The position numbers were made by a program, and so were the translations under genes. This document shows positions 7,294 through 56,144 of a DNA stretch of 64,000 bases, one piece after another (position 1 is the first letter of the stretch; each line of letters opens with the position of its first letter). Below the pieces are notes generated by a model. That model did no database searches, was not told the DNA's origin, and was given only the letters and a program-made list of their open reading frames with translations. Source of the stretch: Dehalococcoidia bacterium. GTDB taxonomy: Bacteria; Chloroflexota; Dehalococcoidia; Lucifugimonadales; UBA3495. The DNA lies in the NCBI GenBank assembly GCA_034428715.1, contig DAOUHE010000290.1, forward strand, positions 988 through 64,987, read 5' to 3'.

Positions 7294-7710
7294 TCAGGCC
7301 GGCTTAAATTTCACCAGGGTCCACTCGTGGGTAACGTCGTCGTAGACCGCCACCACCGGCATATCCACCTGGAGGTCTTCGTGGGCGCACTCCACAATGT
7401 TCGAGATCATCCGGGGGCCTTCATCCAATTGAATCACACCGTAGACATGGGGAGCGTCGTCGCGGAACGCCGCGTTGGCCACCTGATGGACGATGGTGTA
7501 GGTATGGAGACGTCCTTTTCCGCTGACGGTGGCCCAGCCGATGTCTTGGGAGGCACACCTGGGGCATTCCTCCCGGGGATAGAAGAAGAACTTGTCGCAT
7601 TTTTGGCAACGGGGCATTGCCAACTCGTGACGTTGAACTGCCTCCCAAAAGGGTTTGGTTAATTCGGTGCTGAGCGGCCGGGGCAGAGGCTTTCTGTATT
7701 CGGTGGTCAT
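7294..7710 (-). CDS. Zn-ribbon OB-fold protein (DUF35 family)
   Basis: 138 aa. Contains CQKC...CPRC Zn-ribbon cysteines followed by an OB-fold segment (GKGRLHTYTIVH). Confidence 0.85.
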   Translation of the reverse strand: MTTEYRKPLPRPLSTELTKPFWEAVQRHELAMPRCQKCDKFFFYPREECPRCASQDIGWATVSGKGRLHTYTIVHQVANAAFRDDAPHVYGVIQLDEGPRMISNIVECAHEDLQVDMPVVAVYDDVTHEWTLVKFKPA

Positions 7711-7747
7711 TTCGTTCCTTAATTAATCGAACCTTATTTGGCGAAAC

Positions 7748-8036
7748 TTATTTGGTTGCTTCGGTTCCCAATATGAGCGTGCACATCACGCTCCCGGTAC
7801 CGCCTCAACCATTCACCATGGTCAGGTCGTGCTTGGCCACCTGCCGCTCATCGGCCCGCCCCATGACCTGGCGGATACCCTCAATGACGTGGCGGAAGCC
7901 TCCGGCCCCGCCCACCGGCTGGCCTTCGGAAAGCTGAGCCATTGTAGGTTGTGTCCACCGAATCGAAGAAGGGACCGATCTCGCCCTTCTCGCAGATCCC
8001 GGCATCTTCGAGGCACACGGCCTCAAGAATGGTGTA
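7748..8036 (-). pseudogene. 5'-truncated, frameshifted thiolase-like (SCP-x/lipid-transfer type) remnant
   Basis: Minus-strand pieces lie in two frames: YTILEAVCLEDAGICEKGEIGPFFDSVDTTYNG, then QLSEGQPVGGAGGFRHVIEGIRQVMGRADERQVAKHDLTMVNG-TGA-GGTGSVMCTLILG. Only the last ~95 aa of a thiolase of ~390 aa are present. The remnant begins right at the stop of 8037..9086. Confidence 0.7.
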
Positions 8037-9086
8037 TCAATCATAAAATTCGACCGGGCCCACCCGTTCGGCTGCATCTCTGGCTGCCACCAAGTAAACC
8101 GGCTTGGGGTTGAAGGAGTACTCCCGGAGGCAGGCTTCGGTGAATTTTATGCTGTGGGCGCCACCTGCCGCAACCGCCCGGTCTGTTAATTCTTCCTGGT
8201 CTTCGATCGGAATGGCCAGTTCCGAAGTGTCCAACGGGGGAGCGGCCGAGTACCAGGAGTAGATGGAGGCGCAGGCCTGCCAGGCGTATCGTGCGGCCAG
8301 ACGAGAGGACTCTTCGGTGAGGTAGGGAGCTATGTTCCGCAGGGCGCTAGGAGCGGTAACCGTGTGGACGAACGCTATGAGGTTTTTCTGATTGGCAAGG
8401 TAGACCCCGGCGAAGGTTTCGGTAAGGTTGGAGATAAACGCGGATAAGTCCCCTTCGGTGTCTACCAGGTCTATTGTCACGGCAAACTTCGGGTGGTCAT
8501 CCAGGCCCATGACCTGATTGCTAATCCCTCCCCCACCATCGAAATCAGGGCCGTGTAACCGGTCAACTTGCTCAACCGCCGACCTTGGGGAGAATCCGGA
8601 ATTAAATGGCGAAGGGCTCCCCGGCAGTACCTGGTAACGTGCTGCCCAATACCCTAATCCCTGAGCCAACTCGTGTAACCGCTGGGGTGTTTCGACGGCC
8701 GATAGGCTGCGGGCGGCGTGGCTGGTCCGAAGCAGGCCATGGGTTGCCGCAGCCATGACGGCCGGCGCCAGATGCGGCACCCACTGGCTTAGCACGTCTT
8801 GCCAAGGCGCCTCCTCCAACTCCCGGTCGAAAAAAGCAGTCCAATCGCTGAGGCGGCTACTATCTCCCAGGGACTCGCGCCAGTCGGAACGGGAGATGGG
8901 GGTGGTGGGCTTGGGGTGGTCTATCAAACCGCTCTTGTAGTTTTCTACCCAGGGTAGCACCGCCTCGTCCCGTCCCAATTTAAACAGGGCTTCGGCGGCC
9001 ATCGGTCCGTGATTAGCGTTCCCGTTGGCTCGCTCGGTGCCAAAGGGGCTGAGAAGGTCCAGCATCTCATCGATGGTGATACTCAT
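8037..9086 (-). CDS. Questin-oxidase-like protein (DUF4243 family)
   Basis: 349-aa ORF. The N-terminus ...NGNANHGPMAAEALFKLGRDEAV is characteristic of the family. Confidence 0.65.
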   Translation of the reverse strand: MSITIDEMLDLLSPFGTERANGNANHGPMAAEALFKLGRDEAVLPWVENYKSGLIDHPKPTTPISRSDWRESLGDSSRLSDWTAFFDRELEEAPWQDVLSQWVPHLAPAVMAAATHGLLRTSHAARSLSAVETPQRLHELAQGLGYWAARYQVLPGSPSPFNSGFSPRSAVEQVDRLHGPDFDGGGGISNQVMGLDDHPKFAVTIDLVDTEGDLSAFISNLTETFAGVYLANQKNLIAFVHTVTAPSALRNIAPYLTEESSRLAARYAWQACASIYSWYSAAPPLDTSELAIPIEDQEELTDRAVAAGGAHSIKFTEACLREYSFNPKPVYLVAARDAAERVGPVEFYD

Positions 9087-52517: not shown

Positions 52518-53435
52518 TCAATCCATACCGGTCTGGCGGAAGCATTCCAAAAGATCGTTGATTTCCGTGAGCTGCTGTTCACCCAGCCCCCGGGCTCTGG
52601 CAATGGGCAAAGATTCCCTACTTAGCGCCGTATACGCCGGGATCAATTCGTTGAAGCCGCCGCTCAGGGCTTCCAGGTGCGATTTTATTGTGGCGGCGTC
52701 TCCCCTGATGGCGGGTCCGGTGGCGCTAGCAACCAGGCCGTGTTCAGCTACGTTTTCGAGCGTGGACCGGCAAAGCGGATACAAGGCCCGGACCGCTTCC
52801 TCTTGGGTGAATCCCATCCCTTCCCATAAACGGACCGCGCCATTCAAGAGGGCTGCCAGATGCCCGCAGGCCATGACACTGGCGGCGTGGTAAAGCGGAC
52901 GTTGACCATCGGGAATGGTGATCGGATTGCCTCCCAGCGCCACGGCCAGGCCACGCAGGTAGCCAGGCACCCATTCATTGCCCGCCACTGCGAAGGTGAC
53001 ACCCCGTAGTCTGTCCACAGCCTCCGCGGGATCATTCAATCCGGCAAAGGTTTGGCAGGGATGGAACGCGCCGGTAGCCGCCCCCTGGCTGGCCGCCGGC
53101 TCCAACAATTCCTCCGAAGCAGCGCCGCAACAATGGACCACTCCTTGGCCGGGCCGCCAGATAATCTCGGAAACCAGCTGGCTGATCACCCCGTCGGGGG
53201 TGGTCACGAACACCAGGTCTACCTGATCGCACAGATCTTGGGCCTGGCTGAACACGCAGCACCCTTCTACTCGATCCGCTGTCCATTGGGCGGATGCCGG
53301 CGTGCGGCTATAGACTCCCGCAACCGGGTACCCGATCTGGGAAAGCGCGATGCTCAGCCCTTTTCCCAGGACTCCCAAGCCTATAAAACCGACGGTTGGA
53401 TTCGATTGGTTTGGAATGTTCATGGGCGAACTCAC
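52518..53435 (-). CDS. Rossmann-fold / DUF2520 protein (candidate ketopantoate reductase, PanG-like)
   Basis: VGFIGLGVLGKGLS Rossmann motif and a C-terminal TGPAIRGD. The GTG start overlaps the upstream stop (GTGA). It sits directly upstream of panB-panC. Confidence 0.6.
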   Translation of the reverse strand: MSSPMNIPNQSNPTVGFIGLGVLGKGLSIALSQIGYPVAGVYSRTPASAQWTADRVEGCCVFSQAQDLCDQVDLVFVTTPDGVISQLVSEIIWRPGQGVVHCCGAASEELLEPAASQGAATGAFHPCQTFAGLNDPAEAVDRLRGVTFAVAGNEWVPGYLRGLAVALGGNPITIPDGQRPLYHAASVMACGHLAALLNGAVRLWEGMGFTQEEAVRALYPLCRSTLENVAEHGLVASATGPAIRGDAATIKSHLEALSGGFNELIPAYTALSRESLPIARARGLGEQQLTEINDLLECFRQTGMD

Positions 53436-54457
53436 GAAGCAAGTTCTCGACCGGAAAGTTCTCGACCCGAAAGCTCTCGACCCGAAAGCTCTCGAATCGA
53501 AGGCAGGCCACCCAGGCCGGCCGCGGTTTCAACGGCCCTCAAAATCGCCAAGGCGGTCACCTCGACGGCGGCCGCGCCCAGCACGGTCAGGTCTACGGGC
53601 ATCCCTTCATTTTTGAGATGTCCCGTAGCCATGGCGAACATGGTATCGCCGTCTCTGATGGTATGGCAGGGCCGAACGGTCAAAGCCAATCCGTCATGGC
53701 TTACTCTGGCCATGTAGTTAGCTTCTTCTTTTGTCAGTTTGGCGTCGGTGGCGACGATCCCGATAGTGGTATTTGCCAGTTCCGCGCTTTCCGGATCTGG
53801 GTCTTGTTCCAGCAACAATGCCACCGGGTCATCGAACCCTACGCCGTCATCTCTTCTTGGTCCGGCCAACAGGCGGCCGGTCCGATGATCGGTAATCCCG
53901 CCGTAGGCGTTGACCGCCACCACGGCGGATACGGTGGAGCCGTTGGGCAGTTTTAGGCTAGCCGATCCAATGCCCGATTTTATCGCCCGCTCCCGTCCGC
54001 CGGTTTTGGCAACCGTTGCGCCGGTTCCCGCGCCCACGCTCCCTTCCAGCATGGGGTCAGCAACCGCGGCAAGACAGGCCCGGTAACCTTCCTCGGCGCC
54101 GGGTCGAACCTTATGGTTTATCAAACCCAGGTCAAACAAGATCGCGCCGGACACTATGGGGACCACCGCGGGTCCCACTTCCAATCCGATCCCCTGCTCC
54201 TCAAGATAGCGGACCACACCGCCGGCCGCGTCCAAGCCGAACGCGCTGCCGCCGCTCAGCAGGATCGCATGGACCCGTTCCACTCGGTGAACGGGCCGCA
54301 GCAGGTCAGTTTCGCGGGTGCCAGGAGAACCGCCACGTACGTCTACGCCGCCCACGGCGCCTTCGCGGCAGAGTACAACCGTGCAGCCGGTGGCGTTTGC
54401 CAGATCGGTGTAATGGCCTGCCTGCAACCCTGTCACCGCGGTGATGGTGGGATTCAA
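53432..54457 (-). CDS. P1 (formerly S58) DmpA/BapA-family aminopeptidase with a C-terminal (ELSGR)x4 tail
   Basis: ITAVTGLQAGHYTD, GGSPGTRETDLL, and NTTIGIVATDAKL. The start is uncertain. The TTG at 54457 follows GGAG, whereas the GTG at 54505 lies inside a strong hairpin. Confidence 0.75.
   Translation of the reverse strand: MNPTITAVTGLQAGHYTDLANATGCTVVLCREGAVGGVDVRGGSPGTRETDLLRPVHRVERVHAILLSGGSAFGLDAAGGVVRYLEEQGIGLEVGPAVVPIVSGAILFDLGLINHKVRPGAEEGYRACLAAVADPMLEGSVGAGTGATVAKTGGRERAIKSGIGSASLKLPNGSTVSAVVAVNAYGGITDHRTGRLLAGPRRDDGVGFDDPVALLLEQDPDPESAELANTTIGIVATDAKLTKEEANYMARVSHDGLALTVRPCHTIRDGDTMFAMATGHLKNEGMPVDLTVLGAAAVEVTALAILRAVETAAGLGGLPSIRELSGRELSGRELSGRELAS
53441..53500 (-). repeat. 4 x 15-bp in-frame tandem repeat (pentapeptide RELSG) at the 3' end of the peptidase gene
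   Basis: Plus-strand units aagttctcgaccgga / aagttctcgacccga / aagctctcgacccga / aagctctcgaatcga. Confidence 0.9.
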
Positions 54458-54485
54458 GACATCTCCAGCAGCGGGGAATGCAACA

Positions 54486-54520
54486 TTAAAAAAGTAAAGC
54501 CCCACCGTCCCGGCGGGGCT
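54486..54520 (-). terminator. Intrinsic-terminator-like hairpin + U6 in the leader of the peptidase/pan operon
   Basis: The minus strand reads AGCCCCGCCG-GGA-CGGUGGGGCU, a 10-bp stem including one G-U pair, followed by UUACUUUUUU. Confidence 0.6.
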
Positions 54521-54642
54521 TCAACGTGAAAACCACTCTGTTTTGGGGCCGTCTCGGTCAACATGGATCCCAGCGGCCATTCCGAATGAGTTGGAATGTT
54601 AAATTGTCCGGCTCGCCTCCCTTTTGGGTAGACGGCACTTAT
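54521..54642 (-). promoter_or_regulatory. Candidate structured 5' leader of the peptidase-DUF2520-panB-panC operon
   Basis: It lies between a promoter-like element and the terminator-like hairpin. On the minus strand GCCGUCU pairs with AGACGGC, and the adjacent CGGACAA pairs with UUGACCG around an A-A mismatch. Confidence 0.35.
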
Positions 54643-54693: not shown

Positions 54694-55431
54694 TTAAGCG
54701 GTTACTCCGACGCAGGCTTTCAGAGCTTCCTCCCATTCATCGAGGTCAAAAAAGTGGGGACCGGCTCCGCCGTGATAGGCAACCTTGCCATCGGCGTCAA
54801 TGAGATACAAACGCTCCGGAGCCGCGCCATAGGCTTCGTCCACGTTGTTATCCATCTCTTCCACCAGCACTGGGACCTCGATATGAAGGTCCAGCGTGCA
54901 GGTGGCGGCAACCTCGTCCCGCTCGTCAAAACTTTGGTGTTGCCGGAACAAGATTCCCAACTCTACGTTGCTATCGGTCTGCCATCCGTCGGTGGGATGG
55001 GCTTCCTGCACATAGACCACGAAGAATTCCACCTGGCCATTGAACTTGCGATAGATCTCGTTTATGCGATCAACCTGAGCGCGGAAGGGGGGTCAAGTGT
55101 AGCTGCCGAAGATCAGTCCCACCGGCCGCTTGCCCGTGAAGCTGGATAGACTTACCATTTCTTCCGACCCCATCCGCTTTAGATTGAAGTCTGGTGGGAC
55201 ATCTCCCTCTTTGGGGCCGGTCTCGTCACGAGAGGTGGTGGCAGTTAAGGCAGACTGGACATTGGCATCCAAAGCATCCAATCGTGGGGCCAGCACCTGC
55301 TTCCTTCGGGCAATCTGTTCACCGGGCAAAGCCTTGGCTTCGGCGCGGATCTCCTGGAGTATCTGGCGATAGCTGTCCCGCTCCTCCTGGCTAAGGCTAT
55401 TCAATATGCTGTCCCGTTTCGCCTTTTCCAT
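54694..55431 (-). CDS. Iodothyronine-deiodinase-like (thioredoxin-fold) selenoprotein, 245 aa with Sec at codon 113
   Basis: ORFs 55093..55431 and 54694..55092 are in one frame, separated only by TGA. Read-through gives GLIFGSYT-U-PPFRAQV...FFVVYVQEAHPTDGW...EEMDNNVDEAYGAAPERLYLID...VAYHGGAGPHFF, matching the deiodinase family signatures. Confidence 0.8.
55093..55095 (-). other. In-frame UGA, predicted selenocysteine codon
   Basis: The minus strand reads ...ggc agc tac act TGA ccc ccc ttc..., i.e. G S Y T U P P F. Confidence 0.7.
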
Positions 55432-55595
55432 TAGCCTCCTTTGTTCGCGCCCAACTTGTTTGGCCAGACTTGGATCGGCATCGATTGAGACTTAATCTCA
55501 AGCCGGGAAATTTTGCCAAGTTTAACTCTCAATTCCAGTTGCGGTCAACGCGTATTTGCCCGCCAAGACCTTCCGGCCTGGTTGTGCTCGAAGGT

Positions 55596-56144
55596 TTAAA
55601 TAACCAATTCGGGCGTCATGTCCGGCGCCAATTCGACTTCGAAGGCCGCTAATATCTGACCCACCAAAAGGTAGTGGCCGATGAGTCCCGTCATGTCTAT
55701 CGTGCCCTGCACGCCAAAACGGTCCACAGCCGCTTGGTATGTTTCATCGGTGATCTTGTGGTTTCGCAACAATTGCTGCGTGTAACGGACGACCAATTCT
55801 TCGTCGCCGGATAAACCCGCTGGAGCGGTGCCGTCGGCCAGGGCTTTGATGGTCGATTCCGATGCCCCAGCCTGGCGAGCCAAGCGGGCGTGAGCGGTGA
55901 ACTCATACTGGGATTTGATCTCCCTGGCGGTGGCCAGAATTACGGTTTCCTTCAACGCTTCCGGCCAATCGAAGTCGAAACGCACGTAGGTCCCGGTGTG
56001 TGCTACCCGCGCGGCCAGCTTGGGGCTGTGGAGCAAAACCCCGTAGGGACCCCTTACGCTGCCCCGGCTACCCGAAATCTCGTCAAAGAATTGCTGGTCT
56101 TCGGCCTTTAGTTGGTCCCTGGTCAGATTGTCTAGTCTAGCCAT
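55596..56144 (-). CDS. Carboxymuconolactone decarboxylase (CMD / AhpD-like) family protein
   Basis: 182 aa. ETVILATAREIKSQYEFTAHARLA is a typical CMD helix pair. Confidence 0.75.
   Translation of the reverse strand: MARLDNLTRDQLKAEDQQFFDEISGSRGSVRGPYGVLLHSPKLAARVAHTGTYVRFDFDWPEALKETVILATAREIKSQYEFTAHARLARQAGASESTIKALADGTAPAGLSGDEELVVRYTQQLLRNHKITDETYQAAVDRFGVQGTIDMTGLIGHYLLVGQILAAFEVELAPDMTPELVI

Follow-up and report, generated by a model that had tools for sequence, protein, structure and literature searches.

Within the 64,000-nucleotide stretch of DNA analysed here (hereafter the window; Dehalococcoidia bacterium, assembly GCA_034428715.1, contig DAOUHE010000290.1, positions 988 to 64,987), a single minus-strand frame of 246 codons extends from an ATG at 55431..55429 to a TAA at 54696..54694 and is interrupted by one internal stop, a TGA at 55095..55093. 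A listing of open reading frames (ORFs) splits this frame into two 112-aa ORFs, 55093..55431 and 54694..55032 (the latter with a GTG start), which is the arrangement described in an original prediction made from the DNA letters, with the TGA as the only interruption. That prediction had also anticipated that gene callers would split the gene, and they do so, most database entries being C-terminal fragments of 134-138 aa. The peptide across the TGA reads KRPVGLIFGSYT-*-PPFRAQVDRINEIYRKF, followed further along by VYVQEAHPTDGWQ and then by EEMDNNVDEAYGAAPERLY; the deiodinase pattern previously recognized in these motifs is confirmed in translation and by the Pfam T4_deiodinase family (E = 2.1e-34), a resemblance well outside what chance would produce. 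The window gene is thereby supported as encoding a deiodinase-family selenoprotein with a UGA at an FGSxT-U-PPF active site, where U denotes selenocysteine (Sec). The features that carry this assignment are as follows, in window coordinates:

54694..55431, minus strand: complete coding sequence of a deiodinase-like selenoprotein, 245 residues with Sec as residue 113, one frame with one TGA
55207..55431, minus strand: N-terminal hydrophilic helical region of ~75 residues, specific to SAR202-type proteins and without a Pfam match
54724..55221, minus strand: deiodinase/thioredoxin-fold catalytic domain, residues 71-236, with the deiodinase (Dio)-type insertion EAHPTDGW...RQHQSFDER, placed by Pfam, by the PDB and by Foldseek of a homologue model
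55093..55095, minus strand: UGA codon, Sec113, within FGSYT-U-PPFR; TGA in 80 of 80 loci, TGC/TGT in 32-35 metagenome homologues, aligned with the Sec-to-Cys position of structures 4TR3 and 9H48
55066..55082, minus strand: bacterial selenocysteine insertion sequence (SECIS) hairpin GCGCUCA-GGU-UGAUCGC, with a 7-position stem that is interrupted by a single C·U mismatch (55079 opposite 55069) and closes a triloop (55075..55073)
54937..55104, minus strand: counterparts of the deiodinase proton relay, namely Ser110 (55104..55102), Thr112 (55098..55096), Tyr140 (55014..55012), Glu143 (55005..55003), His145 (54999..54997) and His165 (54939..54937)
54898..54900, minus strand: TGC codon of Cys178, a candidate resolving cysteine in helix alpha-2, its role suggested by conservation

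The family assignment was obtained from profile searches in which the TGA was read as Cys. Pfam PF00837 (T4_deiodinase) matches the read-through protein with 119.3 bits against a cut-off of 27, residues 71-236 falling on profile positions 71-232 of 237. Weaker Pfam matches above cut-off, at 34-36 bits, are found for AhpC-TSA (PF00578) and Redoxin (PF08534); the AhpC-TSA score (36.3 bits, cut-off 26) is far under the deiodinase score, and the protein has a Ser at -3 from Sec and no Pro at -7; it is akin to the peroxiredoxins in fold and is not classed among them. The NCBIfam model NF038285 (deiodinase_rel, a hypothetical equivalog of 347 aa) scores 200.9 bits, under its whole-protein cut-off of 250, the match being confined to profile positions 165-340, which correspond to the catalytic domain, while the N-terminal half of the model is absent from the window protein. 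A search of solved structures matched only the catalytic cores of mouse Dio3 (4TR3, E = 2.3e-24) and Dio2 (9H48, E = 1.3e-23), which align with the window protein position by position along FGSxT-C/U-PPF, EAHPxDGW, the QH motif and AYG..ERLY; opposite FGSYT-TGA-PPF of the window, 4TR3 has FGSCT(C)PPF and 9H48 has FGSAT(C)PPF. Structure prediction with AlphaFold2 was performed on the full-length Cys homologue P0001, which is 61% identical to the window protein, and gave a model with a mean predicted local distance difference test score (pLDDT) of 88.2 and a predicted template modelling score (pTM) of 0.82. When this model was submitted to Foldseek, 9h48 and 4tr3 ranked first with target-normalised TM-scores of 0.80 and 0.77; ResA/TlpA-type oxidoreductases and AhpE came next, with E-values of 1e-8 to 1e-7. 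The earlier claim of a deiodinase-like protein is thus upheld by profile, by structural core and by the fold of a close homologue. The N-terminal region forms four helices in the P0001 model (pLDDT 65-84) and belongs to an N-terminal ORF cluster common to 58 loci. Residues 1-75 show no signal peptide, membrane anchor or hydrophobic segment, as judged from the sequence and the homologue model, and the SAR202 form looks cytoplasmic.

Relatives of the gene were sought in one genome per GTDB species, where at least 596 were found, and in the best 80 loci, which were examined individually, a TGA occupies the exactly homologous codon in every case. Approximately 55 of these loci belong to SAR202, Dehalococcoidia or Chloroflexota and the rest to Myxococcota or 'delta' lineages, Planctomycetota, Acidobacteriota and, in one case, Pseudomonadota, and the TGA-bearing loci span at least four phyla. 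A Cys codon is found at this position in the homologues P0001, P0019, P0036, P0040, P0042 and P0047, together with 32-35 homologues carrying TGC or TGT that were recovered in a metagenome pattern scan, from which the DNA of the Cys-form controls used below was also taken. The proposal that the UGA falls where deiodinases carry Sec, and the expectation that orthologues would hold TGA or Cys there, both agree with these alignments. TGA is also the commonest ordinary stop in the window, closing 21 of its 47 long ORFs, which argues that the genetic code has not been reassigned. Compared with its two closest relatives, L006 and L007, whose proteins have the same layout and 87% amino-acid identity over residues 1-245, the gene has a ratio of nonsynonymous to synonymous substitution rates (dN/dS) of 0.11-0.12 over codons 1-112, as against 0.04-0.05 over codons 114-245, with dS ~1; the part 3′ of the 'stop' is under stronger constraint than the part 5′ of it.

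The conserved TGA, the Cys homologues, the unaltered code and the low dN/dS together exclude the explanation that the locus is a pseudogene, or that the TGA is a recent nonsense mutation or assembly error in a Cys gene from which two fragments or nothing would be made. Some observations do point in that direction, namely that standard callers split the gene and leave mostly C-terminal fragments in the databases, that the hairpin of the window copy is weak, and that three records (L004, L005 and P0004) carry a real frame disruption at the C-run (55092..55087 in the window) directly 3′ of the TGA. Against these stand the TGA that all 80 species-level genomes share at this codon, the dN/dS of 0.04-0.05 beyond it at a dS of ~1, and a covarying hairpin specific to the TGA forms, by which this explanation is effectively refuted. 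In the three disrupted records (L004:1357-1400, L005:9987-10030 and P0004), five C rather than six follow directly after the TGA (TGACCCCCT...), which places the N- and C-terminal halves out of frame, so that callers begin the second half at an overlapping TTG. The five-C run may stem from an assembly error in the homopolymer, mark a true pseudogene or be a site of slippage, and it occurs in none of the 80 GTDB loci.

The hairpin that is predicted to direct Sec insertion is 17 nt long and begins at the 11th nucleotide after the UGA, with 10 nt between them, and its loop G at 55075 is invariant across the family. When 79 distinct Sec genes are aligned without gaps (A2), the stem is formed by columns 14-20 with columns 24-30 and encloses a triloop of GGU, GGC or GUC, the first G of which (G21) is invariant. 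Of all pair cells in A2, 86.3% are paired, compared with 21-52% in controls whose 3′ arm was displaced by 1-3 columns; six of the seven pairs show double-sided (compensatory) changes, and the covariation score is 0.372 versus at most 0.115 in these controls. Shuffled alignments reached the observed value in 0 of 500 cases on four of five measures and in 9 of 500 for the count of pairs changed on both sides. Because the stem lies within coding sequence, protein conservation was checked as an alternative cause of the pairing. The synonymous third base of the Arg117 codon, however, varies in step with the second position of codon 122, which lies 14 nt from it: CGC occurs with CGN (Arg) in 51 of 53 genes, while all 15 genes with CGT have CAY (His) and all 7 with CGG or AGG have GCY (Ala). 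At least six of the seven pairs are kept in 68 of the 79 Sec genes versus 3 of 32 Cys forms, and the two classes differ by Mann-Whitney test both in pair counts (p ~1e-12) and in local minimum free energy (MFE; p ~5e-11). In the 11 of these 79 Sec genes that lack this register, a hairpin of 6-7 bp lies 4 nt further downstream. Three Cys-form loci, L086, L122 and L123, still have 6 or 7 of the hairpin's 7 pairs where the SECIS would lie and look like recent Sec-to-Cys conversions with a 'fossil' SECIS.

In SECIS elements of the E. coli fdhF type, a minimal upper stem-loop lies ~11 nt after the UGA. The window element resembles these in being a stem-loop within coding sequence, 10 nt after the UGA codon, with a small loop that holds a conserved G, and in that an internal mismatch or bulge is tolerated in the stem; it differs in being shorter (17 nt), in its triloop and unrelated sequence, and in having no Rfam model, and its binding by SelB is a prediction. 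Its position, size and loop G fit the features given for bacterial SECIS elements, a stem-loop just 3′ of the UGA whose small apical loop contains a G (PMC1088965). The candidates offered in the original prediction, GAUC...GAUC and GGCCA...UGGUC, did not hold up, as neither is conserved and the conserved hairpin is the one at 55082..55066. Nor is a 52-nt alternative fold of the window sequence (-7.0 kcal/mol; AGGUU/GAUCU) kept in L006 or L007.

Genes of the Sec machinery are encountered beside several members of the family. A tblastn search with E. coli SelA, SelB and SelD gave no match in the window or in any SAR202 locus and matched only L070, L085, L119 and L091, which were then confirmed with Pfam. 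In L085:10001-14079, a Sec-form deiodinase-like gene is followed in a row by selA, selB and tRNA-Sec, and in L070:1239-10567, the deiodinase-like gene has tRNA-Sec, selB, selA and a selD-like gene within 9 kb, while in L119:10348-14098 and L091:4-687, Cys-form genes are divergent to selB (and selA). This adjacency in four loci of different lineages may mean that the Sec trait is transferred as a set or that the protein is functionally tied to selenium handling. Use of Sec is documented in the Chloroflexi (PMC1794560), and with the codon and hairpin kept across dozens of SAR202 species and the sel-adjacent orthologues, the indirect evidence for Sec decoding is strong.

Decoding of the UGA outside the Sec pathway, either by near-cognate read-through with Trp or Cys or by a lineage-wide reassignment of the stop codon, would accord with the absence of Sec machinery from the window. 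A UGA followed by C, as here, is a leaky termination context, and one source has translated the homologous TGA as Trp (P0027). Such decoding is nevertheless highly improbable, as TGA closes 21 of the 47 long ORFs, the hairpin covaries and has the position and G-containing small loop of a bacterial SECIS (by the criteria of PMC1088965), orthologues adjoin selA, selB and tRNA-Sec in two phyla, and animals have Sec and homologues Cys at the aligned position, so that Trp would be chemically senseless at the position of the catalytic nucleophile. The Trp itself is accounted for: the P0027 record (JGI) reads FGSYTWPPF, whereas the Planctomycetia locus L067:3866 encodes the same peptide with a TGA, so that the residue is an annotation artefact of a gene caller that read UGA as Trp.

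A more specific reading of the sel neighbours is that the protein has its role in the handling of selenium, for instance in its reduction or delivery for SelD, and not in general redox defence. Deiodinase-like genes do abut Sec-machinery genes in 4 of ~120 loci (L085, L070, L119 and L091), but these are four loci only, none of them SAR202, and the window shows no such linkage. Selenoprotein genes are, moreover, often found near sel genes because the trait moves as a unit, and a dedicated role in selenium handling is considered very unlikely. When the window was scanned for further ORF-TGA-ORF read-throughs of coding-like composition, no other credible selenoprotein emerged. One look-alike, at 7294-9086 on the minus strand with a TGA at 8037-8039, was rejected as a disrupted or chimeric thiolase-like gene: a 349-aa ORF crosses the TGA in frame into a thiolase/SCP-x-like C-terminal fragment (..EFYD*YTILEAVCLED..), which continues in another frame (7805-8077), and the next gene is DUF35-like as judged by sequence alone.

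A proton relay has been proposed for Dio2 that comprises Ser127, Thr129, Tyr157, Glu160, His162 and His182 (PMC11592359), and these align with Ser110, Thr112, Tyr140, Glu143, His145 and His165 of the window protein, of which the first five are each at least 99% conserved among 81 Sec forms. Arg207, the equivalent of Dio3 Arg275, is invariant. Cys178 is present in 78 of the 81 Sec forms and in 30 of 35 Cys forms, with 4 more of the latter having a Cys shifted by one residue.

From these elements, a decoding and catalytic scheme may be proposed. The minus-strand segment 55431..54694 is best explained as an intact, expressed-type gene for a cytoplasmic bacterial deiodinase-like selenoprotein, in which comparison shows the UGA at 55095..55093 to be a conserved sense codon, the counterpart of Cys in homologues. 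The covarying 7-bp hairpin with its G-containing triloop has the layout of a bacterial SECIS and would recruit SelB and Sec-tRNA(Sec). Sec113 is predicted to sit at the N-terminus of helix alpha-1 in a thioredoxin/peroxiredoxin-type fold and to act as the nucleophile on an oxidising or halogenated substrate, presumably assisted by a Ser-Thr-Tyr-Glu-His(-His) hydrogen-bond network identical to that of the animal deiodinases. Cys178 could then resolve the Se-OH or Se-X intermediate to a selenenyl-sulfide, and a thioredoxin-type reductant would reduce the selenenyl-sulfide and regenerate the enzyme. Such a cycle, akin to that of an atypical 2-Cys peroxiredoxin, is the most economical reading.

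As a whole, an intact gene with a Sec-decoded UGA, a SECIS and a Sec113/Cys178 redox cycle is the best explanation of the locus and is regarded as very probable. A number of observations weigh against it, and they concern the decoding as well as the chemistry. With 6 of 7 pairs and a local MFE of -4.7 kcal/mol, the hairpin of the window is the weakest of the 79 (median -11.4). When the 79 nt 3′ of the UGA are folded whole, the result is no better than that of shuffles (z = +1.46), and an Rfam scan of the 64-kb window at gathering thresholds returned no matching model and no SECIS match. Sec insertion efficiency could therefore be low in the window clade. The fourth stem pair is mismatched throughout this clade, being C·U in the window and U·U in L006 and L007 (A2 columns 17/27), because an Asp codon (GAU) is kept there, and a weak hairpin under strong protein selection may indicate low insertion efficiency or a tolerant SelB. 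The C·U mismatch makes the SECIS recognisable mainly by comparison, and the instability of the 79-nt fold explains why the earlier by-eye search missed it; of the two routes to a SECIS downstream of the UGA, direct folding failed and comparison succeeded, with the 7-bp covarying hairpin. The window contains no tRNA, as judged by a tRNA scan, and no selA, selB, selC or selD. Position 165, the last member of the relay, is His in 54 but Pro in 25 of the 81 Sec forms (~1/3), and Cys178 corresponds to neither the proximal nor the distal Cys of the vertebrate enzymes. The catalytic cycle as a whole is deduced from residue conservation and homology only, and clustering of neighbouring genes over ~80 loci gave no conserved partner across clades that would hint at a substrate or reductant.

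The resemblance to animal deiodinases raises the possibility that the protein is a genuine selenium-dependent reductive dehalogenase of halo-aromatics, such as marine bromo- or iodophenols, that would operate by the Se···X halogen abstraction of the animal enzymes. It retains the whole Dio-specific insertion, the Ser110/Thr112/Tyr140/Glu143/His145/His165 relay and Arg207, and in fold no peroxiredoxin or ResA comes as near to it as Dio2 and Dio3 do. Nevertheless, this function is judged unlikely. Linkage to genes for aromatic catabolism or halide handling is not conserved in the family, which lies among housekeeping genes in several clades; it is spread over soil, groundwater and marine phyla; and two of the homologues examined have export-like N-termini, signal-peptide-like in P0027 and lipoprotein-signal-like in P0040. 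No assayed bacterial member was found in the literature searched, and the discoverers of the family preferred a generic redox role (PMC1088965). A link to aromatic catabolism is speculation and gains no support from gene context. The broader proposal that the SAR202 protein and its bacterial relatives are true selenium-dependent reductive dehalogenases of natural marine and soil halo-phenolics, ancestral to the thyroid-hormone deiodinase activity of animals, is a long shot, although, if true, it would mean a cobalamin-independent dehalogenation chemistry in Dehalococcoidia lineages without classical reductive dehalogenases. Compared with deiodination of the thyroid-hormone kind, a general redox or peroxidase-type role is the more parsimonious assumption.

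Bacterial deiodinase-like selenoproteins were first described from the Sargasso Sea, in Sec and Cys forms and with a figure of the bacterial SECIS, and a redox function other than thyroid-hormone metabolism was suggested for them (Zhang, Fomenko and Gladyshev, 2005; PMC1088965). The Global Ocean Sampling (GOS) survey subsequently reported 22 Sec and 21 Cys sequences of this family (PMC2398784), so that the statement in the original prediction that such proteins had been noticed in marine selenoproteome surveys was right. An EF-hand fusion resembling the homologue P0032 was described in 2021 (PMC9402790), and the family is listed in reviews of 2022 and 2026 with its motif given as 'UxxC' (PMC9312934; PMC13188914), whereas the window protein reads U-P-P-F and has its second Cys 65 residues away. 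A literature search found no biochemical characterisation of any bacterial family member and no paper joining SAR202 with selenocysteine. As 50%-identity cluster representatives, the family numbers 3,736 at E ≤ 1e-3 and 1,416 at E ≤ 1e-10, many of them multidomain.

Compared with the proteins of the Sargasso Sea study (PMC1088965), the window protein shares the PF00837 domain, a UGA aligned with Cys, a G-loop SECIS directly 3′, a marine origin and a presumed redox function, and nothing essential differs. It can be placed in SAR202 by its synteny with Io17-Chloro-G2 at 78-81% nucleotide identity and is marked by the SAR202-specific hydrophilic N-terminus of ~75 residues and by its unusually weak SECIS. 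With vertebrate DIO1-3, it has in common the FGSxT-U-PPF motif, the EAHPxDGW insertion, the Ser/Thr/Tyr/Glu/His/His relay, the ERLY Arg and a thioredoxin fold with a peroxiredoxin-like N-terminal module. It differs in its identity of only ~26-28%, in having no N-terminal transmembrane anchor, in a Tyr at -2 (Cys or Ala in DIO), in its candidate resolving Cys in helix alpha-2 (Cys178) and in a bacterial-type SECIS inside the coding region, that of DIO being located in the 3′ untranslated region; thyroid hormones are not expected as its substrates. Peroxiredoxins and TlpA/ResA-type proteins (PF00578, PF08534, AhpE and ResA) have the same fold class, a nucleophile at the N-terminus of helix alpha-1 and a Ser or Thr three residues earlier, and the proposed Sec113/Cys178 pair resembles that of atypical 2-Cys peroxiredoxins. 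The window protein, however, has the ~30-residue Dio insertion, neither a CxxC nor a PxxxTxxC motif, and a far higher deiodinase-profile score.

The gene is thus a further, SAR202-assigned member of an already described selenoprotein family and will not surprise a specialist; since the family, its UGA and its bacterial SECIS have been published, the finding is incremental. For annotation, it signifies that the window and dozens of public SAR202/Dehalococcoidia genomes carry a 245-residue selenoprotein that gene callers split or truncate, and for which the 17-nt hairpin offers a simple calling rule. A Sec-dependent enzyme under strong purifying selection in a globally abundant deep-ocean lineage would imply a selenium requirement there, and the conserved Sec113/Cys178 pair and intact deiodinase relay provide concrete residues for mutation.

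Three further features flank the coding sequence, all of them read from sequence or pattern scans:

55435..55440, minus strand: Shine-Dalgarno-like AGGAGG, 3 nt 5′ of the ATG, read from the sequence
55519..55548, minus strand: sigma-70-like promoter match TTGACC-18-TAAACT, 9/12 in a consensus scan, weak and by pattern only
54495..54523, minus strand: strong terminator-like hairpin with a 13-bp stem and CTTTTTT, from a pattern scan, ~170 nt 3′ of the stop codon

The promoter-like match sits within the 164-nt gap between the deiodinase-like gene and an upstream gene of the carboxymuconolactone decarboxylase (CMD) family. The terminator-like hairpin overlaps the predicted GTG start of the next gene, and its assignment to the deiodinase-like gene is therefore tentative. 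That next gene encodes an S58 peptidase, and the overlap of the hairpin (54495-54523) with its mechanically predicted GTG start (54505) suggests that the real start is probably further downstream.

Approximately 12-15 kb around the gene are collinear with L006 ('SAR202 cluster bacterium Io17-Chloro-G2') and L007 (a Dehalococcoidia metagenome-assembled genome) at 73-82% nucleotide identity, which indicates that the window derives from a related SAR202 genome. Its immediate neighbours in the window are the CMD-family gene and the S58 peptidase gene, and in other clades metK, ahcY and ribosomal protein genes are found beside it. CMD- and AhpD-like proteins are known selenoprotein families. The upstream neighbour (55596-56144, minus strand) encodes a CMD (AhpD-like) protein without a CxxC/CxxU redox motif; this copy is not a selenoprotein, and its adjacency to the deiodinase-like gene is not conserved in other clades. 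In the Dehalococcoidia locus L060:9794-16271, the Sec gene is present within 6.5 kb as two complete copies in tandem and one more copy that diverges after EAHPT, either as a duplication or as a long-read assembly artefact. On the other side of the window gene, a 15-nt tandem repeat at 53441-53495 (3.7 copies, 95% match) encodes an (RELSG)n C-terminal tail of the Peptidase_S58 (DmpA-like) gene at 53432-54505.

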